DNA of 64,000 bases from Rhodobacter sp. (GTDB lineage Bacteria > Pseudomonadota > Alphaproteobacteria > Rhodobacterales > Rhodobacteraceae): positions 9,732 to 73,731 of the forward strand of contig JAIYDR010000384.1 of the NCBI GenBank assembly GCA_027487395.1, in the 5' to 3' direction. Each line of letters starts with the position of its first letter. The first letter of the stretch is position 1. Under the pieces are notes generated by a model. That model worked only from the letters and a program-made list of their open reading frames with translations. It was not told the origin of the DNA and ran no database searches. Positions 39,414 through 55,659 of the stretch are shown here, one piece after another. Both the position numbers and the translations under genes were made by a program.

Positions 39414-42400
39414 ATGAACTTTTCCGCCTGGTCAATCCGAAACCCCGTAGCACCCCTTCTGACGTTCTTCTTGTTGATGATTGTCGGCTGGAACAGCTTT
39501 AACTCGCTGCCCATTACACGATTCCCAAACATCGATGTGCCTTTGGTCGCTGTGACCGTGGCGCAATCCGGGGCCGCGCCTGCGGAGATGGAAACGCAAA
39601 TCACCAAGGAAATCGAAGATGCCGTTGCGGGCATCACGGGGGTGAAGAACGTTATCTCCACGGTCAATGACGGCGTTTCAACAACCGCTGTGGAATTCCG
39701 CATGGAAATCCCCACGGAAAAGGCCGTGCAAGACACCAAAGACGCCATAGATCGCATTCGGGGCAATTTGCCGGGGTCGATTGAGGCGCCCGTGGTCAGC
39801 CGGATCGACGTTGAAGGTCAGGCAATCATGACCTTTGCCGTGGCAAACCAGAACCAGACCATCGAAGAGCTTTCCTGGTTCGTCGACAATACCGTGACTC
39901 GCGCGTTGCAGGGGCGTCCTGGCGTGGGCCGGGTGGATCGTTATGGCGGGGCCGAACGCGAAATTCGGGTGGAGTTGGATCCGGTCAAACTGGACAGCTA
40001 CGGAATCACCGCCAGCGCGGTGAACCAGCAGTTGCGCTCCACCAACGCCAACCTCGGCTCTGGCCGGTCAGAAATCGGCGATGGCGAACAGGCGATCCGC
40101 ACGCTGGGTGACGCAGCCACGGTGGAACGTCTGGCCGCGACCACCATCGCCTTGCCCTCGGGCCGGCATGTGCGCCTGTCCGATCTGGGCGAGGTGGTGG
40201 ATACCTACGAAGAACTGCGCTCTTTCGTGCGGTTGGACGGCAACCCGGTGGTGACCTTTGCCGTGTTCCGCGCCAAGGGCGCATCCGAAGTGTCGGTCGC
40301 CGAAACCGTCAACACCGTGCTGGATGGCTTGCGCACCGAGCATCCCGACACGACCATCACCATTGTTGATGAAACCGTGTTCTACACCTATGGCAACTAC
40401 GAATCCGCGCTGCACACGCTGATCGAAGGGTCGATTCTTGCCATCCTTGTGGTGCTGGCCTTCCTGCGGAACTGGCGTGCGACGCTGATTGCCGCTGTCG
40501 CCCTGCCCCTGTCGGCGGTGCCCACCTTCTTTGTCATGGACCTCTTGGGTTTTTCGCTGAACCTCGTCAGCTTCCTTGCCATCACGCTGGCCACCGGCAT
40601 CCTTGTCGATGACGCGATCGTTGAGATTGAAAACATAGCCAGACACATCAGGATGGGGAAAACTCCCTATCGCGCGGCGATTGAGGCCGCGGATGAAATC
40701 GGTCTGGCCGTTATCGCCACCACCTTCACCATCGTCGCGGTTTTCGTGCCTGTGTCGTTCATGGCCGGGATACCAGGGCAATATTTCCGGCAGTTTGGCC
40801 TGACTGTCGCCATTTCGGTGCTGTTCTCGCTTTTGGTCGCGCGTCTGATCACACCGATGATGGCCGCCTATCTGATGCGGTCCAAGGATGCCGACGAACA
40901 ACATGCCGAAGACGGCTTCATCATGCGCGGCTATCTGAAAATCGTCGCCATCTCGACCTCGGGCCGTTTCCTGCGTTTCATCCCGGCGCGCTATGTGACT
41001 TTGGTTCTGGCCTTTGTCGTCTTGGCTGTGTCGATGCACTTCATGCTCAAGGTCCCGGGCAGCTTCCTGCCACCCGAAGACGTCAGCCGCATCTCTGCCT
41101 CGGTCGAATTGCCGCCGGGAACCACCCTGGCAGAAACCGAAGTGGCGACGGATCTCATCCATGAGACGATCAAGGATATCCCGGGCATTGACCGCATCAT
41201 GGTCGTTGGCGGCACCTCGCCCACCGGCGATCTCGACGTCCGTCGCGCGTCCGTGGTGGTGGTTCTGGATCGTTTGGACCATTCGCTGCTGTTGAAGCTG
41301 TCAGATATCGTCAACAAGGTGCCCGTGCTGGGCGACCTGATTCCCGATATAGAAAACAAAGGCCGTCTGATCCCGCAAAACATCATCGAAGCGCAGATTT
41401 TCGACCGGCTCCAGAAACTTCCCGATATGCGGGCGTTCAAACTGAATGACCGCGGTGAACGGGACCTGTCCTATTCAATCCTCGCCGACAATGAGGCGGA
41501 TTTGAACGCGGCTGTGGCGCTTTTGGAGGCTGCTTTGGTCAAGGTGCCGGAACTGGCCAACGTGGCGTCAGAGGGTGCCTTGCCGCGCCCGGAAATCCAG
41601 ATCAGCCCAAGGGTGGCCGAGGCTGCGCGTCTGGGCATCACCACAGCGCAGATCGCCGAAACCGTGCGTGTTGCCACCATCGGAGATTTCGATGCGGCCT
41701 TGGCGAAACTTTCCATCGACAATCGCCTGATCCCGATCCGCGTGCGCCTGAATGATGCCAGCCGCGAAGACCTGTCGCGAATCGCGGCGCTTAAGGTGAT
41801 GACAGCCACGGGCGCTTCGGTGCCGCTGTCCGCTGTGGCGGACATTCGCATCGGCGAAGGCCCATCGGTGGTGGAACGCCTGAACCGCGAACGCCGCGCC
41901 AGCATCGGCGCGAACTTGCCCGTGGGCGTGGCGCTTGGGACGGCATCCGCCGCCTTTGACAAGGTGGTGGCCGAAACCCCATTGCCCGGCACCGCGCGCG
42001 TGGAACAATCCGGCGATGCCGAAGTTCAGGCCGAACTCTTCAGCAGCTTTGGCAATGCCATGATCCTTGGTCTGCTTTTGGTGCTGACCGTGCTGATTCT
42101 GCTCTTCAAGTCGGTGATCCAGCCCTTCACCATCCTGTTTTCGTTGCCGCTGGCCATCGGTGGCGTGGCGGCGGCGCTGATCTTGACCAATTCGGCGCTG
42201 TCCATGCCGGTGCTGATCGGGATTTTGATGCTGATGGGGATCGTGACCAAGAACGCTATCCTGCTGATCGATTTCGCCATCGAAATGCGCAATCGCGGCA
42301 TGGACCGCTTCATGGCGGTGATCGAGGCCGGGCACAAGCGCGCACGTCCCATCGTCATGACCTCGATCGCCATGTCGGCGGGGATGCTGCCCTCAGCGCT

Positions 42401-42695
42401 GGGTGTGGGTGAAGGCGGGTCGTTCCGCGCGCCGATGGCCACGGCGGTGATCGGCGGGATCATCGTCTCGACCGTGCTGTCACTGGTGGTGGTCCCGGCC
42501 TTCTTTTTGATCATGGATGACCTGTCGCGCCTGATGTCATTCTTGTTCAGCAAGATCATCGGCCCGAAAGAGGAAGAACCCGAGGCGCCCCCGGCGCATG
42601 TTCTGGCCGAACGAATCGCAGCGCTTGAGGCTGCGCAGGACAGCCGAGCGCCTATCGCTCTGGCCAAAATCGCCCCTTTGCAGGCGGCGGAATAG
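39414..42695 (+). CDS. RND efflux permease (AcrB/HAE family)
   Basis: 1093 aa; MNFSAWSIRNPV... N-terminus; 12-TM duplicated architecture with two large periplasmic loops. Confidence 0.95.
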   Translation: MNFSAWSIRNPVAPLLTFFLLMIVGWNSFNSLPITRFPNIDVPLVAVTVAQSGAAPAEMETQITKEIEDAVAGITGVKNVISTVNDGVSTTAVEFRMEIPTEKAVQDTKDAIDRIRGNLPGSIEAPVVSRIDVEGQAIMTFAVANQNQTIEELSWFVDNTVTRALQGRPGVGRVDRYGGAEREIRVELDPVKLDSYGITASAVNQQLRSTNANLGSGRSEIGDGEQAIRTLGDAATVERLAATTIALPSGRHVRLSDLGEVVDTYEELRSFVRLDGNPVVTFAVFRAKGASEVSVAETVNTVLDGLRTEHPDTTITIVDETVFYTYGNYESALHTLIEGSILAILVVLAFLRNWRATLIAAVALPLSAVPTFFVMDLLGFSLNLVSFLAITLATGILVDDAIVEIENIARHIRMGKTPYRAAIEAADEIGLAVIATTFTIVAVFVPVSFMAGIPGQYFRQFGLTVAISVLFSLLVARLITPMMAAYLMRSKDADEQHAEDGFIMRGYLKIVAISTSGRFLRFIPARYVTLVLAFVVLAVSMHFMLKVPGSFLPPEDVSRISASVELPPGTTLAETEVATDLIHETIKDIPGIDRIMVVGGTSPTGDLDVRRASVVVVLDRLDHSLLLKLSDIVNKVPVLGDLIPDIENKGRLIPQNIIEAQIFDRLQKLPDMRAFKLNDRGERDLSYSILADNEADLNAAVALLEAALVKVPELANVASEGALPRPEIQISPRVAEAARLGITTAQIAETVRVATIGDFDAALAKLSIDNRLIPIRVRLNDASREDLSRIAALKVMTATGASVPLSAVADIRIGEGPSVVERLNRERRASIGANLPVGVALGTASAAFDKVVAETPLPGTARVEQSGDAEVQAELFSSFGNAMILGLLLVLTVLILLFKSVIQPFTILFSLPLAIGGVAAALILTNSALSMPVLIGILMLMGIVTKNAILLIDFAIEMRNRGMDRFMAVIEAGHKRARPIVMTSIAMSAGMLPSALGVGEGGSFRAPMATAVIGGIIVSTVLSLVVVPAFFLIMDDLSRLMSFLFSKIIGPKEEEPEAPPAHVLAERIAALEAAQDSRAPIALAKIAPLQAAE

Positions 42696-42696
42696 G

Positions 42697-43116
42697 TCAG
42701 ACCAACTTTAGCAGCAAGGCCAAAAGCTGCGCCCGTTCGGGCGCGGTCAACGGGACGAGCGTTTCGGCACTGACCTTCAGCGCCGTCGCCACCCCTTCGG
42801 CAAACAACGCCGCCCCCGCCCCGGTCAGGGAAACGGTAAGGCGGCGTTTGTCATTGGGATCGGCGGCGGTTTCCACCAAACCCTGCCGTGCCAGCCGGTC
42901 CACAACGCCCTTGATCGTGGCGGCATCCATCGCCGTCATCCGTCCCAGATGATTCTGCGATAGCGGCCCCAGTTCGGACAGGCGCGCCAGCACCGCCCAT
43001 TGCACCGAGGTCACCTGCGGCAGACGTTCGGTGAAGATCGCAAGATGCCGCTGGGTCACGCGCCGCAGCACATAACCGATCTGGTCGTCCAGCACATATT
43101 CCGGGCGCTCTGTCAT
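42697..43116 (-). CDS. MarR-family transcriptional regulator
   Basis: 139 aa from MTERPEYVLDDQIGYVLRR...; winged HTH ...QWAVLARLSELGPLSQNHLGRMTAMDAATIKGVVDRL...; divergent from the hydroxylase cluster. Confidence 0.85.
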   Translation of the reverse strand: MTERPEYVLDDQIGYVLRRVTQRHLAIFTERLPQVTSVQWAVLARLSELGPLSQNHLGRMTAMDAATIKGVVDRLARQGLVETAADPNDKRRLTVSLTGAGAALFAEGVATALKVSAETLVPLTAPERAQLLALLLKLV

Positions 43117-43214
43117 GGCTTGAAATAGACCGCGACCGATTGCCGCGCAAGAATGTTGACAGATGCTCCGCCTGTCCGCAATCTCATGTGCATACAAACG
43201 ATATGGGTCGCCCA

Positions 43215-44033
43215 ATGCTGTTTGCCCGCCCCGACACCCTGACACAGGCGATTGCGCTTCGGGCGCAGGGGATGCGGGTTTTGTCGGGTGGGACAGACCT
43301 CTATCCCGGAGCATCGGCAGAACTTTCGGGCGATGTCCTGGACCTGACCGCCATCCCCGCCCTGCGCGATATGACCCAAGGTCCGGATGGCTTGCGAATC
43401 GGGGCGTGCACGACTTGGAGCGATTTGGTGGAGGCAGATTTGCCCCCCGCCTTGACCGCCCTGCAACAGGCGGCGCTTCAGGTCGGGGGGCGGCAAGTGC
43501 AAAACGCCGGGACCATCGGCGGCAACCTCTGCAACGCCTCTCCGGCCGCAGATGGCGTGCCGCCGCTTCTGGTGCTGGATGCGGTGGTGGAATTGACAGG
43601 ACCGACCGGTGCACGGTCCCTGCCGCTGGATCAGTTTATCATCGGCCCCCGCCGCACGGCACTGGCGCAGGGCGAAATCCTGACTGCCATCACGCTGCCG
43701 CACAGCGCCCTGACCGGACGATCCGCCTTTGTCAAACTGGGCGCGCGGGCGCATCTGGTGATCTCAATCGCCATGGTCGCGGTGCGGATTTCGCTGGAAA
43801 AGGGTCACATTTCCCACTGCGCGCTGGCGGTTGGCTCTTGCGGTCCCGTCGCCTGCCGCCTGCCAAGGCTAGAGGCCGCGATCCTTGGTCTGACGCTGTC
43901 TCAGGCGCTGGAACAGATCACCCCTACGGCGCTCGATGCCCTGTCACCCATCGACGATATTCGCGCCACTGCCGCCTATCGGAGGGAAGCCGCCGCCGAA
44001 CTCCTCCGCCGCGCAGTGACGGAGGCCGCATGA
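43215..44033 (+). CDS. Molybdenum hydroxylase FAD-binding subunit (CoxM/XdhB-like)
   Basis: MLFARPDTLTQAIALRAQG...LSGGTDLYP...; 272 aa. A perfect TTGACA lies at 43156-43161 upstream. The alternative ATG is at 43203. Confidence 0.8.
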   Translation: MLFARPDTLTQAIALRAQGMRVLSGGTDLYPGASAELSGDVLDLTAIPALRDMTQGPDGLRIGACTTWSDLVEADLPPALTALQQAALQVGGRQVQNAGTIGGNLCNASPAADGVPPLLVLDAVVELTGPTGARSLPLDQFIIGPRRTALAQGEILTAITLPHSALTGRSAFVKLGARAHLVISIAMVAVRISLEKGHISHCALAVGSCGPVACRLPRLEAAILGLTLSQALEQITPTALDALSPIDDIRATAAYRREAAAELLRRAVTEAA

Positions 44034-46699
44034 TCACCTTCACCCTCAACGGCCAACCCGTCACCACCGACAGCGCCCCAACCCGCCGCCTGTCCGAGGT
44101 GCTGCGTGAGGATTTGGGGCTGAAAGGCACCAAAGTTGGCTGCGACGCGGGCGATTGCGGCTCTTGCACCGTGCTGGTGGATGGCCGCGCGCTGTGCGCT
44201 TGCTTGACCCCCGCCGCACGGATTGCGGGCGCGCATGTCGAAACGGTGGAGCGCGAGACCCCCGAACTCACCCGCCTGCGCACTGCCTTTCTGCGCCACG
44301 GCGCGGCGCAATGCGGCATCTGCACGCCGGGAATGCTGATGGCCGCCGTTGATCTGTTGCGCCGCAATCCCACACCCAGCGAAGCTGAAGCATCCGAGGC
44401 CTTGGGCGGCGTGCTCTGCCGTTGCACCGGTTATCGCAAGATCATCGCCGCCGTTTGTGACACGACCGATAGCGCCGCGATCACCACCGGCGGCGTTGGC
44501 ACGGCGCTTCAACGGATTGACGGCGCGGCCAAAGTGGCGGGCGATCTTTTCGGGGCCGATGTGGTGCCTGACGGAGCTTTGACGCTGAAAGCGATCCGCT
44601 CTCCCCACCATCACGCGGCCTTCACCTTCGGCGATCTGACCGCCTATGCCCAACGTCCCGGCGTGGCGGGCGTCTTTACCGCCGCCGATATCCCCGGCCT
44701 GAATCGCTTTGGCGTCATCCCGCCTTTCGCCGACCAACCCGCCATCGCCCCCAGCCCCGCGCGGTTTCGCGGTGAATGCGTGGCCTTGGTGGCGTTTGAG
44801 CCGGGGGTGACCCCTGATCTGTCCGACTTTCCGATCCACTGGCAAGAACGCCCCGCCCAGATGATCCCGGCCGAGGCCGAGACCTCATCCCATCTGATCC
44901 ACGACAACCGCCCCGGCAACCGTCTGACCGAAGGCCGCGTGGTCAAGGGCGATGCTGCCGCCGCCCTCGCCACCTCTGCCCATATCGTCGAAGGCGAGAT
45001 CACCACTGCCTTCGTCGAACACGCCTATATCGAACCTGAGGCTGGATCCGCGTGGATGGAGGGCGATGTCCTCAACATCCGCGCCTGCACCCAAGCCCCC
45101 GTCATGGACCGCGATGACACCGCCACCATCCTGGCCCTGCCCCATGACCGCGTCCGCATCCGGCCCAGCGCTGTGGGTGGCGGTTTCGGGTCAAAGCTGG
45201 ATGTCAGCCTGCAACCGCTGCTCGGGCTTGTGGCGCTGAAAACCGGACGGCCCGTGCGGATGACCTACACACGGCAAGAAAGCATGGCCTCCACCACCAA
45301 ACGCCACCCGGCCGAGATTCGGGGCCGCATCGGCTGCGACGCCACAGGCCGGATCACCGCCGTCGCCTTCGAAGGCCGCTTCGACACTGGCGCCTATGCC
45401 TCTTGGGGCCCCACCGTGGCAAACCGCGTCCCGGTCCATGCCTCTGGCCCCTACCTGACACCGCATGTCCACGCCCGCGCCCGCGCGATCCACACCAACG
45501 GCCCCGTCTCGGGGGCCTTCCGGGGCTTCGGCGTGCCACAGGCCGCCATTTGGCAAGAAACCCTCTTTGACCAACTCGCCGACAAAGCCGGGATCGACCG
45601 GCTGGAGTTCCGCATCCTCAATGCCCTGACCGATGGCGATCTGTCCGCCACCGGCCAAGTGATGCAGGCCACCGGCATCCGCGAATGTCTTGAAGCGCTC
45701 CGCCCCCATTGGTACCGCGCCTTGGCCGAGGCACAGGGCAAACCCGGACGCGGCGTCGGCCTTGCCTCATGCTGGTATGGCTGCGGCAACACGTCTTTGC
45801 CCAACCCTTCCACCATCCGCATTGGCATCACACCCAGTGGCCAGATCGTCCTGCACCAAGGCGCCACCGACATCGGCCAGGGATCGAACACCGTCATCCC
45901 CCAGATCGCCGCGCAAGCCTTGGGTCTGCCCGTCGAACTGTTCCACCTGATCGGCCCGGATACCTTCCTGACCCCGGATGCCGGCAAAACCTCGGCCAGC
46001 CGACAAACCTATGTCTCCGGCCGCGCCGCCCATGACACTGCCCGCGCGCTGCGGTCACAGATATTGCGGCTGGCCAATGCCTCGGACGCCGCCACCTTGT
46101 CACTGGCCAATGGCACCTTAACCGTCACCGAAGGCACCACCCGCCGCGACATCGCTCTCGCGTCCCAGCCCATCGGCGAAGATGGCTATGTCCTGCTCGC
46201 CGAAGAAACCTATGACCCGCCCACCGCGCCTTTGGATGCCAATGGCCAAGGCAAACCCTACGCCGTCTACGGCTATGGTGCGCAACTGGTCGAACTCCAT
46301 GTTGACCGCGCCCTCGGCACCGTCAAACTGCTGAAGATCACCGCCGCTCATGATGTGGGTCGCGCCATCAACCCCCAACTCGCCGAAGGCCAGATCGAAG
46401 GCGGCATCGCCCAAGGCATCGGCCTTGCCTTGATGGAGGAATACCTCCCCGGCCGGACCGAAAACCTGCACGACTACCTGATCCCTACCACAGGCGACGT
46501 CCCGCCCATCCAGTCAATCCTTTTGGAAATCCCCGATCCCGAAGGCCCCTTCGGCGCAAAGGGCTTGGGCGAACATGTCCTGATCCCCACCGCCCCCGCC
46601 ATCCTCAACGCCATCCGCCACGCCACCGGGGCCAAGATCACCCGCCTGCCCGCCCTGCCCCACCGCATCCGCGCCGCGATCCTAGGGGCAAAGCCATGA
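44030..46699 (+). CDS. Fused [2Fe-2S] plus molybdopterin-binding subunit of a xanthine dehydrogenase/aldehyde oxidase-family hydroxylase
   Basis: ATGA overlap with the FAD subunit. CDAGDCGSCTV and CGICTPGM cluster motifs are followed by about 730 aa of Mo-cofactor domain. 889 aa. Confidence 0.85.
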   Translation: MITFTLNGQPVTTDSAPTRRLSEVLREDLGLKGTKVGCDAGDCGSCTVLVDGRALCACLTPAARIAGAHVETVERETPELTRLRTAFLRHGAAQCGICTPGMLMAAVDLLRRNPTPSEAEASEALGGVLCRCTGYRKIIAAVCDTTDSAAITTGGVGTALQRIDGAAKVAGDLFGADVVPDGALTLKAIRSPHHHAAFTFGDLTAYAQRPGVAGVFTAADIPGLNRFGVIPPFADQPAIAPSPARFRGECVALVAFEPGVTPDLSDFPIHWQERPAQMIPAEAETSSHLIHDNRPGNRLTEGRVVKGDAAAALATSAHIVEGEITTAFVEHAYIEPEAGSAWMEGDVLNIRACTQAPVMDRDDTATILALPHDRVRIRPSAVGGGFGSKLDVSLQPLLGLVALKTGRPVRMTYTRQESMASTTKRHPAEIRGRIGCDATGRITAVAFEGRFDTGAYASWGPTVANRVPVHASGPYLTPHVHARARAIHTNGPVSGAFRGFGVPQAAIWQETLFDQLADKAGIDRLEFRILNALTDGDLSATGQVMQATGIRECLEALRPHWYRALAEAQGKPGRGVGLASCWYGCGNTSLPNPSTIRIGITPSGQIVLHQGATDIGQGSNTVIPQIAAQALGLPVELFHLIGPDTFLTPDAGKTSASRQTYVSGRAAHDTARALRSQILRLANASDAATLSLANGTLTVTEGTTRRDIALASQPIGEDGYVLLAEETYDPPTAPLDANGQGKPYAVYGYGAQLVELHVDRALGTVKLLKITAAHDVGRAINPQLAEGQIEGGIAQGIGLALMEEYLPGRTENLHDYLIPTTGDVPPIQSILLEIPDPEGPFGAKGLGEHVLIPTAPAILNAIRHATGAKITRLPALPHRIRAAILGAKP

Positions 46700-46829
46700 C
46701 CCCGCATTCATTGTCCTCAGATATCCTTGGGCGGTCTGGAGGGCAGACAGCCCTCCGGGGCCAGACACAGAGACGGACAGATCAAGGCGGCAACCATCCC
46801 CCTATCCCCTTAGGGGTGAGGTGGCATCG

Positions 46830-48263
46830 ATGACCGCACAAGAGAAAATCCGCTGCGATGCCTGCCCGGTGATGTGTTACATCGCCCCCGGCCAGACCGG
46901 GGCTTGCGACCGTTATGCCAATGACGCAGGGCGGATTGTGCGCACCGATCCGGTGCTGATGCTGAGCCATGCGCTGCGAGGCAGCGAAAAGATCATCCCC
47001 TTTGCCGCCGCCGAATGGCAGGATGGCCTTGTGCCGGTGGACACCGTGGTGACTGGCATCGGGTCCGGCACGACCTATCCCGATTACAAGCCCGCACCCT
47101 TTATCGTGTCCTCGCAGATCGACGGCGCGGAGTTGGTCACCGTGGTGACCGAGGCGATCTTTTCCTATTGCGGCGTCAAGGTGAAGATCGACACCGACCG
47201 TCACCTTGGCCCCGAAGGCGCCGTGATCCGCGTCGATGGCGAGCCCGTTGGCCATGTCACCACCGCCGAATATGGCAGTCAGATGCTCTCGCTTGGCGGC
47301 GTGCATCACCTGACCGGAGGCAGCAAGGGCGAAGGTCGCATCACCTGCGCCGCGATGCTGGCGCTGTGCAATCGTGACGCCGTGACGCTGACCATCGACG
47401 GCGGCTCAACCGTCACCGTGCAGGCTGGCCAGCCGCCCATCGTGGACGGCACCCCGGAACGGCGCATGCGCGTCGGCTGCGGCTCGGCGACCATTGGCAT
47501 GTTCGCCAGCCAATGGCAGGGCTTGGTCGATGAGGTGGTGGTTGTCGATGACCACATCACCGGCGTCGTCAGCGAACATCAGGCAGGAAAGGTGATCGGC
47601 TGGCCCGCGACAGGCATCCGCATCAAGGGCCACCGCTCTACCCCTGGCCGCTACTTCCGCGTGTCTGATCCCGGCTTGGGATGGGGCGGCACGAAGCTGA
47701 TAGACCCGTTGGACATCCTCGGCCCGTGGAACGCGGCCAAAGGCGCGCGGCCCGGATTGCGGCTGTTGATGGTGTCAACGACGGGCGAGGAATACGGCTA
47801 CTACATCCTCGATGCGTCTCTAATCCCGCAAAAGCACCCGTTGCCGCCGGAACTGGAACCCTCCGTCAAATTGATTGATGAAAACTGCGAACCCTCGCTT
47901 TGCACCGTCCTGTTCATGGGCGGCGCGGGGGGCAGTCTGAGGGCGGGGGTGACGAAAAATCCGGTACGGCTAACTCGGTCCGTGCAGGCGCGTGAGACTC
48001 GGCTGACCTGCGGCGGGGCCGAATGCTATGTCTGGCCCGGGGGTGGGATCACCTTCATGGTCGATGTGCTGGACCTGCCGCCCGGCAGTTTTGGCTATGT
48101 CCCCACACCCGCGCTGGTGGCCCCGTTGGAGTTCACCCTGCCACGGGCTTCCTATCTGCGCTTGGGCGGGCATGATGAGGCGATCCGCTCCCTCCCCGAC
48201 ATCCTGCAAAACGGCGGCGAATACCCCACCGCAGCGAAACTCCATCCAAGGGGGCAGGGATGA
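46830..48263 (+). CDS. 6-hydroxynicotinate reductase-like Fe-S protein
   Basis: N-terminal Cys motif CDACPVMCYIAPGQTGACDRY. Family recalled from database annotations, not verified. GTG at 46821 is the alternative start. Confidence 0.5.
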   Translation: MTAQEKIRCDACPVMCYIAPGQTGACDRYANDAGRIVRTDPVLMLSHALRGSEKIIPFAAAEWQDGLVPVDTVVTGIGSGTTYPDYKPAPFIVSSQIDGAELVTVVTEAIFSYCGVKVKIDTDRHLGPEGAVIRVDGEPVGHVTTAEYGSQMLSLGGVHHLTGGSKGEGRITCAAMLALCNRDAVTLTIDGGSTVTVQAGQPPIVDGTPERRMRVGCGSATIGMFASQWQGLVDEVVVVDDHITGVVSEHQAGKVIGWPATGIRIKGHRSTPGRYFRVSDPGLGWGGTKLIDPLDILGPWNAAKGARPGLRLLMVSTTGEEYGYYILDASLIPQKHPLPPELEPSVKLIDENCEPSLCTVLFMGGAGGSLRAGVTKNPVRLTRSVQARETRLTCGGAECYVWPGGGITFMVDVLDLPPGSFGYVPTPALVAPLEFTLPRASYLRLGGHDEAIRSLPDILQNGGEYPTAAKLHPRGQG

Positions 48264-49084
48264 GCGCGCAAGTCACATGGCTTCCGGGGGGACGATTGCA
48301 CCTCCATCACGGGCCGATTGATGTGATCCTGCAAGGTTGGGGCGACGCGCGGTCGCTACAAGCGGGCTATGCGGCGGCGGTGACCAGATTCGACACCATT
48401 CTAGAGGAATTGGTGTCTGAACTGCCTGCGCTGCGATCCCCGGATGCCGCAGTGACCGGACCCACCGCACGGTTGATGGCCGCTGCCGTAATCCCTTTCC
48501 GCCCCACCTTCATCACGCCCATGGCCGCTGTCGCCGGGGCCGTCGCCGACACCATCCTGCGCGCCTTTGTCCGCCCCGGCATCACCCGCGCTTTTGCCAA
48601 CAACGGCGGCGACATCGCACTGCATCTGGACCCCGGCGAACACCTGACCTGCGCCATCGCGGGGGCAGCCGGAAGCGTCACGATCCACGCCGCCGATAGG
48701 GTGCGCGGCATCGCCACCTCGGGTTGGCGGGGGCGCAGTTGGTCTTTGGGTATCGCGGATTCAGTGACGATCCTTGGCAAAACCGCAGCCGAGGCCGATG
48801 CCGCAGCGACCATCGTCGCCAATGCGGTGGACCTGCCGGGCCATCCCGCCATCACCCGCCGCCCCGCTTTTGACCTACAAGCCGACAGTGACCTTGGCCC
48901 CCGCCTTGTCACCACCAATGTCGCCCCCCTGACCGCAACCGAGGCGCAAACCGCCGTAGATCGCGGTGCAGCCACAGGGCAAGCGGCGCTGGCGCGCGGA
49001 CTGATCGACGGCGCGTTGATTTTCCTGCACCCTGCAGTGCGAACCCTTGGCACCCTGCGCTTGAAGGAGCCTGAACTTGCCTGA
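48260..49084 (+). CDS. UPF0280-family protein
   Basis: 274 aa; ...LHLHHGPIDVILQGWG... pattern recalled for UPF0280; ATGA overlap with the upstream gene. Confidence 0.5.
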   Translation: MSAQVTWLPGGRLHLHHGPIDVILQGWGDARSLQAGYAAAVTRFDTILEELVSELPALRSPDAAVTGPTARLMAAAVIPFRPTFITPMAAVAGAVADTILRAFVRPGITRAFANNGGDIALHLDPGEHLTCAIAGAAGSVTIHAADRVRGIATSGWRGRSWSLGIADSVTILGKTAAEADAAATIVANAVDLPGHPAITRRPAFDLQADSDLGPRLVTTNVAPLTATEAQTAVDRGAATGQAALARGLIDGALIFLHPAVRTLGTLRLKEPELA

Positions 49085-49658
49085 CTTCCCCCTCCGCCGC
49101 ATCACCACACAGATCGAGGAGATCCACCACGAAGGGGGGCCCCTCGCCAATCCGCCCGCCCTGCGCGGCGCGATCATCGCCGTGGTGGGCAACCCCTTCG
49201 CCGGACGCTACGAGCCGGATTTACAGCCCGCGATGGAGGCCTTGAAACCCCTCGCCCTCCTGTTGACCGACCGTCTGGTCGCCGCTTTGGGCGGGCGCGA
49301 CGGCATTGATGCCTATGGCAAAGGCGCCATCGTGGGTGAAAGCGGCGAGTCCGAACATGGCGCGCTGTGGCATGTCGCGGGCGGTTACGGGATGCGCGAC
49401 CGCTTGGGCGAGTGTCGGGCCATCGTGCCCTCCGCCATGAAACTGGGCGGCATCGGGTCCACGCTGGATGTCCCCTTGGGGCACCTGAACGCCGCCTATG
49501 TGCGCTCGCGTTTTGACGTGATCACCGTGCGGATGGAGGATGCGCCGAAAGCGCATGAGATGGCGTTGGTCTTGGCCATGGCGCGCGGCGGACGGGTCCA
49601 CAGCCGCATGGGCGGACTAGAGGTCTGGCAGGTGAAGGGCGAGGACGGGCTAAGATGA
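49077..49658 (+). CDS. Amino-acid-synthesis family protein (AA_synth, PF06684/DUF1185-like)
   Basis: TTG start overlapping the upstream stop. ...YGKGAIVGESGESEHGALWH... and ...AAYVRSRFD... match my memory of PF06684. Confidence 0.55.
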   Translation: MPDFPLRRITTQIEEIHHEGGPLANPPALRGAIIAVVGNPFAGRYEPDLQPAMEALKPLALLLTDRLVAALGGRDGIDAYGKGAIVGESGESEHGALWHVAGGYGMRDRLGECRAIVPSAMKLGGIGSTLDVPLGHLNAAYVRSRFDVITVRMEDAPKAHEMALVLAMARGGRVHSRMGGLEVWQVKGEDGLR

Positions 49659-51055
49659 CACAACCGCACCGCCCGAATTCCGTGCAAGGAGTTTGCCAAG
49701 GGTTTTCCAAAATCCTTGGGGCGGTGCCTGTGGTTGTTTTCCTGCCCTCTGTGGCCTTTGCCTGTGCGCTGCCGCCGTCCATCATCCTGACCCTTCCGAC
49801 GGGGTGGTATATGACCGGGGCGGCGCTGACTGTCCTGCTCACGGCGCTTTTCGGGGCGGCGGCGGATCGGTTGCCGGACCCGAACCCACGGCTTTTGTGG
49901 CAGCGAAACGTGATCTTGCCGGAAACGCTGACGTCTTATGTCGCGTTCCTGTGCTTTCTGGGCCTGCTGGCAGTCGGTTGGCTGGGCGCGCGTGATCCGA
50001 TGCACAATCTGATGACGCTGGTGTTCTGGACCGGGGTTTGGATCGCGCTCCCTCTTGGGTCGATGCTTTTGGGCAATCTGTGGCGACCGTTGAACCCTTG
50101 GACCGGGCCAGTGCGAATTGCACGCACGCTGCTGAACCGAACCGGCGGCATCGGGCTGAAACGCCTTGGCCATCTGCCCGCCGTGCTGGGCTATGGCGGC
50201 TTTGTCTGGTTCCAGATCATCTCAATGTCGCCGGATGATCCCTTTGTGCTGGCCACCGCCGCCGCCGCCTATTGGCTGGTGATCTTTGTCCTTGCCGTGT
50301 TGGAAGGCGAAGATTGGCTGCAACAGGGCGAGTTTCTGACCGTCCTCATGGGCTGGCTGTCGCGCGTGTCGCCGCTTTGGCTGGACATCGCGGGGCCGAA
50401 AGCGCGGCTGATGCTGGGCTGGCCGGGGGCGCAGGTGCTGCGGATGCAAGCCTTGACCCGCAGTGAAATCGCACTGGTGACGATGGCCTTGGCGGCGCTG
50501 ACCTTTGACGGGCTGGCGGAAACCTTCTGGTGGCAGGGGCTGATCGGGGAAAACCCGCTGGAGCCCACTGGGCGATCTGGCGTGATGTGGGATAACTCGC
50601 TTGGGTTGATTGTCGCTTGGGCGCTGACGGCGGGAACGATCCTTGGTGCGATCCGGCTGGGGCAATGGTTCGGCGGGCGCTTTGCCACGGGGCCGATCAT
50701 GCTGTCCTTTCTGGCCATCGCCGCCGGATACCATGCCGCGCATAATCTGGTGACCCTGCTGACCGCCGGGCAATACACCCTTGCCGCGCTGAATGATCCT
50801 TTGTTCCGCGGTGATAGCCTGTTGGGACTGTCGGAGTTCTTTGTCTCGTTCGGCTTCCTGACCGATGCCGGGACCATGCCGCTGATCTATGCCGCGCAAT
50901 TCGCGGCGATCCTGCTGGCGCATCTTCTGGCGGTTTACCTCAGCCTGAAGCTGGCCGGACACGCCCCCGCCAGGGCGCATCTGCCCCTTACCTTATTGAT
51001 GGTGGGTTACACAACCTTGGGGTTGTGGCTACTCTCCACCGCGCGAAGTGCCTGA
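49655..51055 (+). CDS. Polytopic membrane protein of unknown function
   Basis: 466 aa; roughly 10-12 hydrophobic segments; ATGA overlap with the upstream gene; no family recognised. Confidence 0.55.
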   Translation: MTQPHRPNSVQGVCQGFSKILGAVPVVVFLPSVAFACALPPSIILTLPTGWYMTGAALTVLLTALFGAAADRLPDPNPRLLWQRNVILPETLTSYVAFLCFLGLLAVGWLGARDPMHNLMTLVFWTGVWIALPLGSMLLGNLWRPLNPWTGPVRIARTLLNRTGGIGLKRLGHLPAVLGYGGFVWFQIISMSPDDPFVLATAAAAYWLVIFVLAVLEGEDWLQQGEFLTVLMGWLSRVSPLWLDIAGPKARLMLGWPGAQVLRMQALTRSEIALVTMALAALTFDGLAETFWWQGLIGENPLEPTGRSGVMWDNSLGLIVAWALTAGTILGAIRLGQWFGGRFATGPIMLSFLAIAAGYHAAHNLVTLLTAGQYTLAALNDPLFRGDSLLGLSEFFVSFGFLTDAGTMPLIYAAQFAAILLAHLLAVYLSLKLAGHAPARAHLPLTLLMVGYTTLGLWLLSTARSA

Positions 51056-51143
51056 AATGATGTAAAGTTTCAGACGCATACCTACAGGTTTCAACCAAGG
51101 GTCCGCAAGAACGACGGACCCGATCACCAGCGGAGAGAAGACC

Positions 51144-52418
51144 ATGAAGAAAGAACTGCTCGTCCCGAGCCGTCGCTCGGTCCTCAAGGGGATGGGGGCC
51201 GGCATCGTGGCCTCGGCCTTCCCCGGTTATACTTGGGCGCAGTCCTCTGCCTCCATCAAATTGGGGTTCCAACTCCATCGCACCGGGATTGGTGCGGCTT
51301 ACGGCCGCTGGTATGAACGCACGGCGCAGGCGGCGTTGAAGGTCGTCAATGATGCAGGCGGCATCAATGGCCGCCCGGTGGAAATCCTGTTCGAGGATGA
51401 CGCCACAGACCCCAAGCGCGGCGCAGAGGTGGTGGAAAAGCTGGCCAATGACGGCTGCGATCTGATCTTCGGGCCGCTGTTTTCGCATGTGGTCATCGGG
51501 TCCGCGCCGCGCGCGGGAGAGTTGAAGATCCCTTACCTTGTCTGTTCCGAAGGCTACCATGTCGCATCGGGCATGCTGAACCGCTGGACTCTGCAACCCG
51601 GCATCACCGATGTGCGGTCGCAAGTGTCGTCGATGGCCCCGTGGGTGGCGGCGAACTTGGGCAAAAAGGTCACGATGGTCTATCCCGACTACGCCTTTGG
51701 CTACGACCACCGCGATTTCTTTACCGAGGCGATCAAGGCCCAAGGCGGCGAGGTCATCGCACAAATCGCCATCCCGCCGACGGAAACCACCTTTACCCGT
51801 TATCTGCCGCAAATCCCGGCCGAGACTGAGGTGCTGTATCACGTCATGGTCGGTCCGGCCGTACTGACCTTTGTCAAAGAACTGGGCGATTTTTACGGCT
51901 CTGGCGCGCGTCCGCAGATTTTCGGCTTTATCGACTCGCTGGAGGCCGTCGATACCGCCTCGCCGGGGTTGGAATTCCTGGAAGGGACGTATTTCTGGGA
52001 GGCGATGAACCGCGTTAAACAGGACGGCCAGTCCGAAGCCGAGACTGCCTATCGCGCCGCCGTGGGCGTGGATGACAATGGCGCGTCTGTGACGGATGCG
52101 GCGGATGTGTCCACCTACAGCCATATGTTCAGCGTCTGGGAAACCCTTCACACGATCAAGGCGGGGATGGAGGCTGCGGGTTATCAATCCACCGCCGACC
52201 GCCAAAAGTTTGTTGAGGCTTTGGAGGCGATGACGACAATGGCTGAGGGGCCGGGCAATCCGCAGGGCGACAAGGTGTTCAACGGCAAGACCCATCAGGT
52301 GTTCGGCCATCAGAACATCAGCCAAGTCACCGGGGGCAAGATGATGCGCGTCCACCGCACCAGCATCGAGGATGGCCAATATCCCGACGCCGTGGATTAC
52401 ACCACGATGTCCTTCTGA
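51144..52418 (+). CDS. ABC transporter substrate-binding protein (LivK/branched-chain amino acid type) with Tat-like signal
   Basis: SRRSVLKGMGAGIVASAFPGYTWA signal; type I periplasmic-binding fold; GGAGAGAAG Shine-Dalgarno sequence. Confidence 0.85.
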   Translation: MKKELLVPSRRSVLKGMGAGIVASAFPGYTWAQSSASIKLGFQLHRTGIGAAYGRWYERTAQAALKVVNDAGGINGRPVEILFEDDATDPKRGAEVVEKLANDGCDLIFGPLFSHVVIGSAPRAGELKIPYLVCSEGYHVASGMLNRWTLQPGITDVRSQVSSMAPWVAANLGKKVTMVYPDYAFGYDHRDFFTEAIKAQGGEVIAQIAIPPTETTFTRYLPQIPAETEVLYHVMVGPAVLTFVKELGDFYGSGARPQIFGFIDSLEAVDTASPGLEFLEGTYFWEAMNRVKQDGQSEAETAYRAAVGVDDNGASVTDAADVSTYSHMFSVWETLHTIKAGMEAAGYQSTADRQKFVEALEAMTTMAEGPGNPQGDKVFNGKTHQVFGHQNISQVTGGKMMRVHRTSIEDGQYPDAVDYTTMSF

Positions 52419-52426
52419 TCCTAACA

Positions 52427-52455
52427 GGGCGGGGGCAATCCCCCGCCCCTTTTTT
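52427..52455 (+). terminator. Intra-operon Rho-independent terminator/attenuator after the binding-protein gene
   Basis: GGGCGGGGG-CAAT-CCCCCGCCC followed by CTTTTTT, 9 nt after the stop codon. Confidence 0.65.
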
Positions 52456-52468
52456 CGGGGATGCCGCC

Positions 52469-53347
52469 TTGAGTTTCGGACCCTTCCTTTTGCTGGCGGT
52501 GATGGAGAGCCTTGTCACCGCCGCCACACTCGCCTTGACCGCTGTTGGGCTGTCCTTGGTGTTCGGCACCATGCGGGTGGTCAATGTCGCACATGGCGAG
52601 TTTTTCATGCTGGGCGCTGTCTTGGCATGGTTCGTCACCGGCTGGGTGGGCGGACCAGAATGGATCGGCTTTGTTGCCGCCTTGGCACTTGCGCCCTTGG
52701 GTGTGGCCGCCGTCGCCACCTTGGCGGATCGCCTCGTGCTGAAGCGCCTGAGCTATGAGCCAGAGGCGACCATCGTCGCCACCATCGGTCTGCTTTACAT
52801 CCTGCAACAGGCGGCGCTGACGTTTTACGGGCCTGAGGCGCGGCCAGTAGAGCCGCCCTTCAACTTTCGCATCCAATTCCCGTGGTTCGGCTATTCCGGC
52901 TACAAGCTGTTCGTGATCTTTGCCGCCGTTGCGGTGTTGCTTGCGGTCTGGTGGGGCCTGACGCGCAGCAAGGCGGGCCTGGTCATGCGCGCCACGCAAG
53001 TGGACCGCGACACCGCCCGCGCCTTTGGGATCAACGTGGATCGGGTCTATGCTGGGGTTTTCGCGCTTGGCGCCGCGCTGGCGGCGATTGCGGCGGTGCT
53101 GATCGTGCCCATTCAGCAAGCGCATTACCTGATGGGCGGGGAGCCGCTCTTGCTGGCCTTTATCACCGTCATTGTCGGCGGGTTAGGGTCCTTGCGCGGC
53201 ACAGTCATCGCGGCCTTAGTGATCGGGCTGTCGGATGGGCTGATCGCGTTCTTCTACTCGCCCACATTGGCGAAGATTCTGGCAACGCTGCTGGTGGCCT
53301 TGGTGCTGGTGTTCCGCCCGCAGGGGCTGTTTGGGGCGAAAACATGA
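52469..53347 (+). CDS. Branched-chain amino acid ABC permease (LivH-type)
   Basis: TTG start; 292 aa; LivH-like TM pattern. Confidence 0.85.
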   Translation: MSFGPFLLLAVMESLVTAATLALTAVGLSLVFGTMRVVNVAHGEFFMLGAVLAWFVTGWVGGPEWIGFVAALALAPLGVAAVATLADRLVLKRLSYEPEATIVATIGLLYILQQAALTFYGPEARPVEPPFNFRIQFPWFGYSGYKLFVIFAAVAVLLAVWWGLTRSKAGLVMRATQVDRDTARAFGINVDRVYAGVFALGAALAAIAAVLIVPIQQAHYLMGGEPLLLAFITVIVGGLGSLRGTVIAALVIGLSDGLIAFFYSPTLAKILATLLVALVLVFRPQGLFGAKT

Positions 53348-54270
53348 AAGTGTGGGTCGCGCATCTGGCCGTCTTGGCGGTTCTGGGCGTGCTGCTGGCG
53401 GTGCTGCCCGCCTATCACGCCACCAACCTTGCCCGTATCCTAACGCTGGCGGTGTTTGCAACGGGATATAATCTGGCCTTCGGTTACACGGGGCTGTTGT
53501 CGCTGGGCCATGCGCTGTTCTTTGCCGCTGGTGTCTATGGCGCGGCTTTGCCGGTGACCTATTGGGGTCTGTCGCCCCTGCCCGCCATCGGTTTGGGCTG
53601 TTTGGCGGGGGGCGGGCTAGCCGCCTTGGTCGGCCTCCTGGCGCTGCGAACGGCGGGGGTCAGTTTCATGATCGTGACGCTGATGTTTGCGCAGGCGGGG
53701 TATCTGACCCTGCTCTATTTCGGCCAAATCACCGGCGGCGATGAAGGGTTGGTCATGCCCGACGCCACCGCGTTGATCCCCGGCCTGTCCCCCGACACCG
53801 CCCGCGCGGTGATCGCCTTTACGCTGTTTGCTGTGGCCTTGCTGTTATCGCTCGCCGTGATCCGCAGCCGTCTTGGCCGCGTCATGGTGGCGATGCGCGA
53901 GAATGAAGAGCGCAGCCGCATGCTGGGCTATAACCCGTTCACCGTGAAGTTATCCGCACTCGTCCTGTCGGGTTTGTTCGCAGGCGCGGCGGGGGCGGGC
54001 TATGCCTTGCTGTTCGGCTATGCCGGGGCGAGTTTTGCGACCATCCAATACTCCATCCTGCCAATGTTGTGGGTGCTGATGGGCGGGGCAGGGACCACGC
54101 TCGGCCCGCTGCTGGGGACGGCGGCGATGTTCTATCTGGTCGATGGCGCGGCGCGGATCACGACGGCGACGCTGCTCGTCGTGGGGGTGGCGCTGGTCCT
54201 GCTGATCCTGTTTGCACCGAAAGGCATTCTTGGCACGATAAGGGAAAGGGGCGCGCGATGGATTCCGTGA
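53344..54270 (+). CDS. Branched-chain amino acid ABC permease (LivM-type)
   Basis: MKVWVAHLAVLAV... from an ATGA overlap; 308 aa. Confidence 0.85.
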   Translation: MKVWVAHLAVLAVLGVLLAVLPAYHATNLARILTLAVFATGYNLAFGYTGLLSLGHALFFAAGVYGAALPVTYWGLSPLPAIGLGCLAGGGLAALVGLLALRTAGVSFMIVTLMFAQAGYLTLLYFGQITGGDEGLVMPDATALIPGLSPDTARAVIAFTLFAVALLLSLAVIRSRLGRVMVAMRENEERSRMLGYNPFTVKLSALVLSGLFAGAAGAGYALLFGYAGASFATIQYSILPMLWVLMGGAGTTLGPLLGTAAMFYLVDGAARITTATLLVVGVALVLLILFAPKGILGTIRERGARWIP

Positions 54271-54977
54271 TCTTGTCGGCACGCGGCCTGACGCGGCATT
54301 TCGGCGGCTTGCGCGCGGTGGATGGCGTCGATTTCGACCTGTATACGGGGGAAATTCACGCCCTGATCGGCCCCAATGGCGCGGGCAAAACCACCTTTGT
54401 CGGCCTGCTGTCAGGGCGCGTTCCGGTGCAAGCGGGCAGCATCACCTTGGGTGGAGAGGACATTACAGCCTTGCCCGCCCATGCCCGCGTTCGCAAGGGA
54501 ATCGCCTATACGTTCCAGATCACTTCGGTCTACCCGCGCCTGTCGGTCTATGACAACGTGGCCTTGGCCGTCCCACCCGAATCCGGCGAATTGCGCCCCG
54601 CCGTCATGGCCGCGCTGTCGCGGGTGGGGCTGGCGGATCGGGCGGATCAAATCGCCGGGACGCTCTCCTACGGTCATCAGCGGTTGTTAGAGCTTGGCAT
54701 GGGCCTCGCCCTGCGCCCGCGTGTGCTGATCCTGGATGAACCGACCCAAGGGCTGGCCTCGGGAGAGGTCGCAGGCTTTGCCGCGCTGGTGCGGTCATTG
54801 GTGCCAGAAACCACGGTGCTGCTGATCGAGCACAATATGGAGCTGGTCATGGACCTCGCCCAGCGCATCACGGTCTTGAACTTCGGTCAGGTGCTGGCCA
54901 CCGGGACGCCTGCGGAAATCCGCGCCAACACGGCGGTGCAAGCGGCCTATCTGGGGGGCGATGATGCTGCGGCTTGA
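54258..54977 (+). CDS. ABC transporter ATP-binding protein (LivG-type)
   Basis: Walker A GPNGAGKTT; signature LSYGHQRLLE; Walker B LILDEP. Confidence 0.9.
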   Translation: MDSVILSARGLTRHFGGLRAVDGVDFDLYTGEIHALIGPNGAGKTTFVGLLSGRVPVQAGSITLGGEDITALPAHARVRKGIAYTFQITSVYPRLSVYDNVALAVPPESGELRPAVMAALSRVGLADRADQIAGTLSYGHQRLLELGMGLALRPRVLILDEPTQGLASGEVAGFAALVRSLVPETTVLLIEHNMELVMDLAQRITVLNFGQVLATGTPAEIRANTAVQAAYLGGDDAAA

Positions 54978-55659
54978 CGGGGTGGCGGCGGGTTATGGCG
55001 CGGTGCGTGTGCTGGAAGGCGTATCGTTGACCGCAGAACCGGGTCAGATCACCTGCATCATGGGCCGCAACGGGGCGGGGAAATCGACCCTAATCAAGGC
55101 GATTATGGGTCTGGTTCCGCCCACAGCGGGGACAGTCACGCTGGACGGGGTGGCGCTGCACGCCTTACCCGCGCATCTGATCCCCCGCCATGGTGTGGCC
55201 TATGTTCCGCAGGGGCGGCGGCTGTTCGGGCCGCTGACCGTCGCGGAGAACCTGTCCATCGGGCTGATGACGCGCGGTTTCGGGGATGAAACGCGGGAAC
55301 AGGTGCTGACCCTGTTCCCCCGCCTGCGCGAGCGGTTGGATCAAGTGTCGCAGACCCTGTCCGGGGGCGAGCAGCAGATGCTGGCCATCGGGCGGGCCTT
55401 GTGTCTGGAGCCCAAGGTGATCTTGCTGGACGAACCGACCGAAGGCTTGCAGCCATCGATGATCGCGCTGATCCGGGATGTGGTGATGAAACTGAAGGCC
55501 CAAGGCGTGGCGGTGGTCTTGGTGGAACAGCGCCCCGATGCCGTGCTGCGCATGGCCGATCGCGTGGCCTTCATGGCGCAGGGGCGGGTGGCGACGGTGG
55601 TGGCAGCGGCGGAACTTTCGCGGGAATCGTCTCTATTCCAGCAATTTGTGGGGGTCTGA
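54961..55659 (+). CDS. ABC transporter ATP-binding protein (LivF-type)
   Basis: Walker A GRNGAGKST; signature LSGGEQQML; Walker B ILLDEP. Confidence 0.9.
   Translation: MMLRLDGVAAGYGAVRVLEGVSLTAEPGQITCIMGRNGAGKSTLIKAIMGLVPPTAGTVTLDGVALHALPAHLIPRHGVAYVPQGRRLFGPLTVAENLSIGLMTRGFGDETREQVLTLFPRLRERLDQVSQTLSGGEQQMLAIGRALCLEPKVILLDEPTEGLQPSMIALIRDVVMKLKAQGVAVVLVEQRPDAVLRMADRVAFMAQGRVATVVAAAELSRESSLFQQFVGV

Follow-up and report, generated by a model that had tools for sequence, protein, structure and literature searches.

A molybdenum hydroxylase, Hnr, UPF0280 and AA_synth block in a probable nicotinate operon of Rhodobacter sp.

The window analyzed here, a 64,000-nucleotide (nt) stretch of a Rhodobacter sp. 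genome (assembly GCA_027487395.1, contig JAIYDR010000384.1), carries four overlapping genes for a 6-hydroxynicotinate reductase (Hnr)-like Fe-S protein, a UPF0280 protein, an AA_synth protein and an orphan membrane protein (open reading frames ORF1 to ORF4). These genes are the middle of one 13-gene operon of about 16 kb (43140-59357) with a divergent MarR regulator (Table 1). The natural unit is the molybdenum hydroxylase together with Hnr, UPF0280 and AA_synth, and not the four-gene core proposed in an earlier reading of the DNA made without database searches (the sequence-only reading): the conserved block takes in the upstream hydroxylase and not the membrane protein gene. The operon probably encodes a reductive breakdown of nicotinate of the Eubacterium barkeri/Azorhizobium type, in which UPF0280 and AA_synth would be dedicated partners of Hnr and hydantoinase A/B (HydA/B) would open the ring. 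A cluster of this kind has been published before, and the locus is a lineage-specific variant of it; the finding is thus incremental and no new system. Three of its features were not found described in the literature searched: an Hnr without a ferredoxin domain, HydA/B in place of enamidase, and an orphan membrane protein heading the importer genes. The remaining interest lies in three proteins of unassigned function and in the unsolved fold of Hnr.

At least 592 stretches encoding a relative of Hnr were found by a pattern scan in which each species was represented by one genome. In total, 80 alphaproteobacterial loci were retained with 10-kb flanks, and the near-relative loci were compared by tblastn and clustering of open reading frames. 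The alphaproteobacterial loci contained a rigid block composed of the hydroxylase FAD subunit, the hydroxylase FeS/Mo subunit, Hnr, UPF0280 and AA_synth. The Hnr family adjoined an XDH-type hydroxylase in 62 of the 67 long alphaproteobacterial loci, with the FeS/Mo gene directly upstream. A distant set was formed by 47 metagenome loci encoding Hnr of the ferredoxin-domain type, in which the usual order was Mo subunit, amidohydrolase (383-397 amino acids), Hnr, UPF0280, AA_synth, FAD subunit and FeS subunit. Twenty-five of the distant loci had enough sequence downstream of Hnr; 15 contained both partners, five contained only AA_synth, one contained only UPF0280, and four contained neither. On these counts the Hnr-UPF0280-AA_synth trio is old and widespread, yet non-obligatory. 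The co-occurrence of all four genes on which the sequence-only reading depended held for Hnr, UPF0280 and AA_synth across deep divergence and failed for the membrane protein, which follows an ATP-binding cassette (ABC) transporter. As a separate observation, tandem duplicate Hnr paralogues adjoined a molybdenum hydroxylase in two loci (L132:5512-8674 and L134), with no UPF0280 or AA_synth gene nearby.

The four open reading frames and their overlaps were present in the window as first read. At 48260-48263 the ATG of ORF2 overlaps the TGA of ORF1 (GGGATGAGC), and at 49077-49084 the TTG start of ORF3 and the TGA stop of ORF2 share the sequence TTGCCTGA, with a perfect AAGGAG at 49063-49068, 8 nt 5' of the TTG. 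The junction of the AA_synth and membrane protein genes is AGATGAC, with ATGA at 49655-49658. No terminator-like sites were found between the four genes. ATG 46830 is the more likely start of ORF1, rather than GTG 46821, because homologues are 476-480 amino acids long and a GAGGTGG lies 6 nt before that ATG.

These junctions were kept in relatives. In 61 of 66 loci the overlap between the UPF0280 and AA_synth genes was exactly 8 nt. Of the 75 loci measured for the spacing from Hnr to UPF0280, 27 had -4, 16 had -1 and 17 had +1 to +9. Where the membrane protein gene followed AA_synth (21 loci), the spacing was -4 or -1 in 15. Because the overlaps are kept in relatives, they are no artefact of start-codon assignment, and the first account of them stands in this respect. 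A 4-nt overlap between the FeS/Mo and Hnr genes was found in 35 of 73 relatives; the window instead has a 130-nt spacer (46700-46829) that holds a GGAGGGC...GCCCTCC hairpin. The fold of this spacer was no more stable than that of shuffled sequence (z -1.2), and the spacer had no Rfam match.

Such tight coupling could mean that UPF0280 and AA_synth are stoichiometric subunits of a heteromeric Hnr-UPF0280-AA_synth reductase, an alternative that we consider doubtful. It draws on the start/stop overlaps kept across at least 60 loci and on a gene order that persists over deep divergence. It has against it several lineages in which Hnr has one partner or none, and the AA_synth relatives TgnF and HcdD, which serve unrelated enzymes elsewhere. 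The E. barkeri Hnr, moreover, is said to have been purified as a single kind of polypeptide. Published structures of AA_synth proteins (JCSG; PMC2954203) show hexamers whose dimer interface encloses a large, conserved cavity, which would suit a heteromeric enzyme; a cluster of histidines is also conserved in them. The reading that we prefer, in which UPF0280 and AA_synth serve Hnr as dedicated partners within a nicotinate operon and are not enzymes of general use, is followed below.

In the proposed pathway the ABC importer would take up nicotinate, with the orphan membrane protein as an accessory of the importer. The FAD/FeS/Mo hydroxylase would convert nicotinate to 6-hydroxynicotinate, and the Hnr-like protein would reduce 6-hydroxynicotinate to 1,4,5,6-tetrahydro-6-oxonicotinate (THON). 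HydA/B would then open the lactam of THON in an ATP-dependent reaction, giving ammonia and 2-formylglutarate. UPF0280 would be a cytoplasmic factor, derived from ApbE, by which the Hnr cofactor is loaded or matured through a non-canonical mechanism, and AA_synth would be a helper for the ring-opened dicarboxylate intermediate or the aldehyde product. The substrate, the roles of the three proteins of unassigned function and the lactamase step are deduced from gene context and homology; gene order, overlaps, homologies and the conserved linkage are observed directly.

In the established chemistry, 6-hydroxynicotinate is reduced to THON, and a bifunctional enamidase opens the ring, frees ammonia and gives 2-formylglutarate (PMC9304392). 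The nicotinate fermentation cluster of E. barkeri (nicotinate dehydrogenase, Hnr, enamidase) likewise has a molybdenum hydroxylase followed by a four-Cys reductase of the Hnr family, and the amidohydrolase adjoining Hnr in the distant metagenomic relatives is a further E. barkeri-like feature. The window differs from E. barkeri in that its Hnr has no N-terminal 2x[4Fe-4S] domain, and in that it lacks the later fermentation genes and has HydA/B in place of enamidase. A homologue from a member of the Bradyrhizobiaceae is 42% identical to the E. barkeri Hnr; the strain grows on nicotinate via 6-hydroxynicotinate, and the gene belongs to a cluster common to Azorhizobium, Bradyrhizobium and Rhodopseudomonas (PMC3511419). 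In Azorhizobium caulinodans, Bradyrhizobium japonicum and Rhodopseudomonas palustris this cluster is said to hold the pathway's first three steps, including enamidase (PMC3511419, Fig. 4), and two of its members that are unnamed in the paper are very probably UPF0280 and AA_synth. It differs from the window and its 80 closest loci, which lack enamidase within 10 kb and often have HydA/B; the membrane protein is unmentioned in that paper. The statement in the sequence-only reading that these families have no clear biochemistry in aerobes overlooked both the Azorhizobium nicotinate pathway and this published proteobacterial cluster (PMC3511419).

No enamidase-like gene was found in the window or within 10 kb in the 80 loci, apart from one weak match in L050 (E 4e-5, 93 amino acids). 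HydA/B is proposed as the ring opener because no enamidase is present. Hydantoinase A was linked to the conserved block in at least 30 loci. The window pair shares both the Hydantoinase_A and Hydantoinase_B Pfam domains, full-length, with the caprolactamase/5-oxoprolinase/hydantoinase A-B family; its best NCBIfam matches were caprolactamase alpha (478 bits) and caprolactamase beta (303 bits), at a cut-off of 1000. As these scores are far below the equivalog cut-off, the substrate of the pair would differ from that of caprolactamase, and THON is the candidate that we infer.

The operon might instead degrade another N-heterocyclic carboxylate or a lactam. That no subunit reached an NCBIfam equivalog cut-off, that enamidase is absent, and that the lactams of the HydA/B family are varied would all fit such a substrate. 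We judge it quite unlikely nonetheless, for three reasons. Distant relatives pair Hnr with an amidohydrolase, which presumably has the same size as enamidase. In 17 Hyphomicrobiales loci (L040:1246-1956, L059:5367-6113 and 15 more), a gene for a PncA nicotinamidase/pyrazinamidase that scores above the NCBIfam cut-off is divergently oriented next to the hydroxylase FAD gene, although PncA is absent from the window. Related clusters also occur in organisms that grow on nicotinate via 6-hydroxynicotinate (PMC3511419). Nicotinate therefore remains the preferred substrate.

ORF1 had no Pfam or NCBIfam model and carries the NCBI and JGI name 6-hydroxynicotinate reductase. It was 79-100% identical to proteins of that name, and its best named match (94% identity) was from 'Rhodobacteraceae bacterium PARR1'. 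The matches place the organism in the Paracoccaceae (Rhodobacterales), near Tabrizicola/Pseudotabrizicola. More than 8000 homologues were counted for ORF1 and likewise for ORF2, and a search of 1.8 billion cluster representatives placed 264 representatives in the Hnr family at E <= 1e-30. Among 17 diverse members, the motif C9-x2-C12-x3-C16-x9-C26 was invariant and C217 nearly so. The conserved candidate residues for flavin attachment were C217, Y148 and T436; no histidine was invariant. Most of the distant full-length members were about 510 amino acids long and had an N-terminal 2x[4Fe-4S] ferredoxin domain, which is absent from the window Hnr and from three other members (P0241, P0250 and P0251). 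The window protein was 30-46% identical over its full length to representatives with the ferredoxin domain, a branch that we take to include the characterized enzyme. The E. barkeri Hnr has been reported to contain two [4Fe-4S] clusters.

The AF2 model of Hnr was confident (pLDDT 84.6, pTM 0.82), and a Foldseek search of it against PDB gave nothing at E <= 0.001; Hnr thus has a confident predicted fold without a solved relative. A faint likeness to the C-terminal barrel of GcvT (3gir, probability 0.25) was consistent with a weak Pfam GCV_T_C match. Two natural fusions of about 970-980 amino acids (P0247 and P0249), which look genuine, join a GltD-like module (Fer4_20 + Pyr_redox_2) to the Hnr core, and suggest that electrons derived from NAD(P)H drive Hnr in some lineages. 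A gene for a ferredoxin-NADP reductase-like protein (FAD_binding_6 + NAD_binding_1) was observed in or beside the cluster in L052 (12889-13758) and six other loci; in L052 it follows just 3' of AA_synth, and in the loci checked (e.g., L058) it adjoins hydantoinase A. Its product is a possible electron donor for an Hnr that lacks the ferredoxin domain. Apparent Hnr::UPF0280 fusions (P0280, P0361 and P0390) were left unused: P0280 reads as a frameshifted metagenome gene call, and the other two were treated alike.

ORF2 matched the UPF0280 model NF003322 with 341.2 bits at a cut-off of 290, and the other three PRK04334 models gave 52-67 bits only. PF27030 was present in all 120 homologues among the matches listed, and the JGI name is 'ApbE superfamily uncharacterized protein (UPF0280 family)'. 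A UPF0280 profile searched against PDB matched 2o34 (E 5e-11) and no ApbE chain. Because this search gave no ApbE chain, an ApbE alignment was built from eight annotated sequences (E. coli and seven plasmid genes) and compared by hhalign with 27 UPF0280 sequences. The two aligned with 93.9% probability (E 1.5e-7) over 117 columns of the C-terminal core only; the N-terminal half of UPF0280 was unaligned. The Pfam ApbE model matched weakly (E 0.01), below its cut-off. The aligned motifs, given as UPF0280~ApbE, were the MAAVAGAVAD~AKGY region, NNGGD~GG(D/x), GIATSG~ATSG and ADAAAT~ADxxxT. Judged by these profile comparisons, UPF0280 is a genuine remote homologue of ApbE, which bears out a relationship that the sequence-only reading had put forward.

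ApbE has few conserved catalytic residues (S241, H257 and D285 in V. cholerae) and modifies clients with the motif D-x-x-[S/T]-G-A-[S/T], according to a 2025 review (PMC12052999). Two of this proposed Asp-Ser-His triad are kept in UPF0280, in which the Ser (TSG) and the Asp (ADAAAT) are aligned and conserved. Compared with the FAD:protein FMN transferase ApbE/Ftp, then, UPF0280 shares a homologous core with GGD-like, TSG and ADxxxT positions; it differs in being shorter (274 versus about 340 amino acids), in having no lipoprotein signal or other signal peptide and no His segment, and in that its presumed client lacks the motif. In our reading, UPF0280 would be dedicated to Hnr and would handle a nucleotide or a cofactor.

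A literature search for UPF0280 by name returned no paper. The only genetics on the COG2122 family places it in homocysteine synthesis: Desulfovibrio needs COG2122 to make homocysteine by the DUF39-dependent route, in methanogens the protein was suggested to take part in persulfide modification, and the homology was said to stop short of the part of ApbE that binds flavin (Price et al., PMC5764234). The COG2122 protein of the DUF39/NIL-ferredoxin homocysteine pathway (Desulfovibrio, methanogens; PDB 2o34) is of the same UPF0280 superfamily as the window protein, and both partner enzymes of reductive steps with ferredoxin-type clusters (PMC5764234). The two differ in NCBIfam subfamily and in partner enzyme, and DUF39 was undetected in the window by Pfam scans.

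From this precedent (PMC5764234), UPF0280 could serve Hnr as a relay for sulfur or persulfide, or as a factor in Fe-S maturation. The invariant four-Cys motif and C217 of Hnr would be in keeping with such a role. The Hnr-linked UPF0280 proteins, on the other side, have zero conserved cysteines (the single cysteine of the window protein, Cys131, lies outside the conserved columns), and their conserved positions are the TSG and ADxxxT of an ApbE-like nucleotide/metal site. A persulfide relay was dropped as the leading idea since the cysteines are not conserved, and the role as a whole appears very unlikely. We return to UPF0280 as a cofactor-handling partner of Hnr after considering AA_synth.

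ORF3 matched the AA_synth model with 215.9 bits over profile positions 1-175 of 175, and matched the PDB entries 3byq (E 1.9e-48) and 2qtp (E 1.2e-42). Six residues (E91, E93, H94, H99, R173 and R177) were conserved among 77 near and distant AA_synth sequences, as were the further polar residues K82, K122 and D131. By position the six match E90, E92, H93, H98, R172 and R176 of the published structure (PMC2954203). Two other members of the DUF1185/AA_synth family, TgnF of Acinetobacter baylyi and HcdD, also belong to catabolic operons, for a pyridine carboxylate and an unsaturated lactone, and adjoin a ring-reducing or ring-opening step. These systems differ from the window, where the operon has no aldehyde dehydrogenase, and the window protein is likened to TgnF by family membership. 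The trigonelline (N-methylnicotinate) pathway passes via an intermediate of the 2-formyl- or aminomethylene-succinate type, analogous to 2-formylglutarate, and in Azorhizobium the ring-opened product is decarboxylated next. TgnF stimulates the oxidation of succinate semialdehyde in trigonelline catabolism; HcdD is co-induced with the enzyme by which the 7-hydroxycoumarin lactone ring is reduced, and no effect of HcdD was demonstrated (PMC7913881). Given the TgnF report and this chemistry, AA_synth may act, like TgnF, on an unstable ring-opened intermediate (a 2-formyl or 2-aminomethylene dicarboxylate) or on an aldehyde product, a role that we put forward tentatively by analogy.

Two other ideas on AA_synth were tried. 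A plain replacement of the deaminase half of enamidase was weakened by the co-occurrence of AA_synth with the amidohydrolase in distant loci. A tautomerase-like N-terminal proline was rejected: the window protein begins MPDF, versus MSLY and MTKI in the crystallized homologues, and the proline is not conserved.

Several observations weigh against parts of the nicotinate reading. The substrate is an annotation transfer at about 40% identity to a characterized enzyme family. Many of the 80 loci have neither enamidase nor HydA/B within 10 kb, which leaves HydA/B a candidate ring opener, and the window Hnr lacks the 2x[4Fe-4S] domain that the distant branch has. Some lineages have no UPF0280 beside Hnr. 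In UPF0280 the SH(I/V)IDPxTGxP segment, which holds the general-base His of ApbE, is an alignment gap with no conserved His, and the ApbE client motif occurred in none of the nine operon proteins checked, nowhere in a six-frame translation of the window and in none of 17 diverse Hnr proteins. The TgnF analogy is one sentence of a secondary paper, and AA_synth co-occurs with enamidase in distant loci.

Without the His segment and with no client motif in Hnr, flavin maturation by UPF0280 is possible yet would necessarily be non-canonical. The tight linkage to Hnr and the retained Ser and Asp positions of the triad speak for it. The specific proposal that UPF0280 installs a covalent flavin or other nucleotide-derived cofactor in Hnr with neither His base nor client motif, AA_synth being a second dedicated helper, is in our estimate unlikely. 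If true, the same UPF0280 activity would explain why the DUF39 homocysteine enzyme requires COG2122, and there would be a second, unrecognized class of protein-cofactor transferases for ferredoxin-dependent reductases. UPF0280/COG2122 and AA_synth/DUF1185 are large families with crystal structures since about 2007-2010, a span for which we take the UPF0280 date from PDB entry 2o34. The biochemistry of both is unestablished (for AA_synth, PMC2954203). Both families are tied here to one defined enzyme, Hnr, in aerobic, genetically tractable alphaproteobacteria, and work on the partners of Hnr could illuminate what COG2122 does when methionine is made anaerobically.

The membrane protein was found to belong elsewhere. 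Consistent with the sequence-only reading, which recognized no family for it, no match was found in Pfam (E up to 10), NCBIfam or PDB sequence searches, and Foldseek against PDB gave a best E of 0.023 with a TM-score <0.2 and none at E <= 0.001 (model pLDDT 69). Hydropathy and charge distribution suggest about ten transmembrane helices and a signal peptide that is cleaved off. The A-x-A site is followed by Cys in the Tabrizicola/Gemmobacter clade and by His in roseobacters, and the invariant features are H360, H363, H423 and the motif ETFxWxxxxGxNPLExxGRS. Altogether there were 861 homologues, all 'hypothetical', versus more than 8000 for Hnr.

The membrane protein gene lies 3' of AA_synth in the Tabrizicola/Gemmobacter clade. 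In roseobacters, SAR116 and others (18 loci), a homologue of 33-46% identity is upstream of the regulator and hydroxylase. In 39 of the 39 loci with both visible, the gene shared the strand of the binding-protein gene and lay 59-216 nt upstream of it, and it was never seen without the binding-protein gene. Three loci (L016, L025 and L026) lacked the membrane protein gene and the transporter together, and in these AA_synth and hydantoinase A stood -1 to +21 nt apart. In L070, the roughly 1.2 kb visible upstream of the binding-protein gene would hold only part of the membrane protein gene, and gave no match to it. Because of this constant adjacency and joint absence, the gene is assigned to the transporter module: it is the first gene of that module, which in this lineage is inserted between AA_synth and hydA. 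The ATGA overlap of the AA_synth and membrane protein genes is therefore a local arrangement.

The sequence-only reading had suggested that the membrane protein anchors the reductase complex or couples it to the quinone pool. The ATGA overlap in the window would agree with this, as would the three invariant histidines in transmembrane helices 8 and 9, which could bind metal or haem; the nicotinate hydroxylase of Azorhizobium is membrane-bound. However, in the 18 loci above the homologue adjoins the binding-protein gene and is distant from both Hnr and AA_synth, the binding-protein adjacency and joint absence in three loci tie it to the transporter, and its family is much smaller than that of Hnr. 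Since the gene tracks the ABC transporter and not the reductase, an anchoring or quinone role has no genomic support, and we regard it as highly improbable; a role as importer accessory is preferred.

Table 1. Features of the predicted nicotinate operon and its borders, in window coordinates.
Feature	Coordinates	Strand	Basis or remark
MarR-family regulator	42697-43119	-	Pfam MarR/MarR_2; divergent from operon
Molybdenum hydroxylase FAD subunit (putative nicotinate hydroxylase)	43140-44033	+	Pfam FAD_binding_5 + CO_deh_flav_C
Hydroxylase fused [2Fe-2S]/molybdopterin-binding subunit	44030-46699	+	Pfam Fer2, Fer2_2, Ald_Xan_dh_C, MoCoBD_1, MoCoBD_2
Hnr-like Fe-S reductase (6-hydroxynicotinate reductase family), 477 amino acids, ORF1	46830-48263	+	NCBI and JGI naming
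UPF0280/COG2122 protein, remote cytoplasmic ApbE homologue, ORF2	48260-49084	+	NF003322, 341 bits
AA_synth protein (PF06684, formerly DUF1185), ORF3	49077-49658	+	Pfam E 3.5e-64
Orphan membrane protein, 466 amino acids, ORF4	49655-51055	+	No family match
HAAT-type ABC importer periplasmic binding protein (branched-chain-amino-acid type)	51144-52418	+	Pfam Peripla_BP_6, E 5e-51
Terminator-like hairpin 3' of binding-protein gene	52427-52448	+	Nine G-C pairs, then T-run
ABC importer permease 1	52469-53347	+	tblastn match to locus L001
ABC importer permease 2	53344-54270	+	Pfam BPD_transp_2
ABC importer ATPase 1	54258-54977	+	Gene order as in L001
ABC importer ATPase 2	54961-55659	+	tblastn match to locus L001
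Hydantoinase A	55660-57678	+	Pfam Hydantoinase_A
Hydantoinase B	57675-59357	+	Pfam Hydantoinase_B
Two tandem CorA-family Mg/Co transporter paralogues	59339-60403, 60476-61429		Directly downstream of operon; end the cluster

The hydroxylase FAD subunit likely starts at ATG 43203 or ATG 43215, its homologues being about 275 amino acids long. Between the binding-protein gene and the permease genes, the strong hairpin reads GGGCGGGGG-CAAT-CCCCCGCCC followed by the T-run, and probably governs how much binding protein is made relative to permease. Locus L001 contains two permeases (BPD_transp_2) and two ATPases (ABC_tran) in the same order as the window. The hydantoinase pair abuts ATPase 2 with zero gap and is contiguous with the operon. 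The MarR homologue was found in 44 related loci, with its position mostly unchanged. A promoter scan gave no sigma-70-like site, and no Rfam elements were found across 42000-60500.

Upstream of the MarR gene, at 37546-42695, the window encodes a regulator of the TetR type together with an RND adaptor and pump. In thirteen close relatives the position is instead taken by a 677-amino acid Fe-S flavoenzyme of the OYE/FadH type (e.g., L001:3824-5929), which could be an extra reductase of the pathway or an electron donor; this genome has none at that site. A GC-rich imperfect tandem repeat (period 18-30, three to five copies) lies at 62214-62325, in a region with unclear coding. TRAP transporter genes DctM and DctQ are on the minus strand at 31585-33932, where the AT skew is unusually high (0.28 at 32-34 kb).

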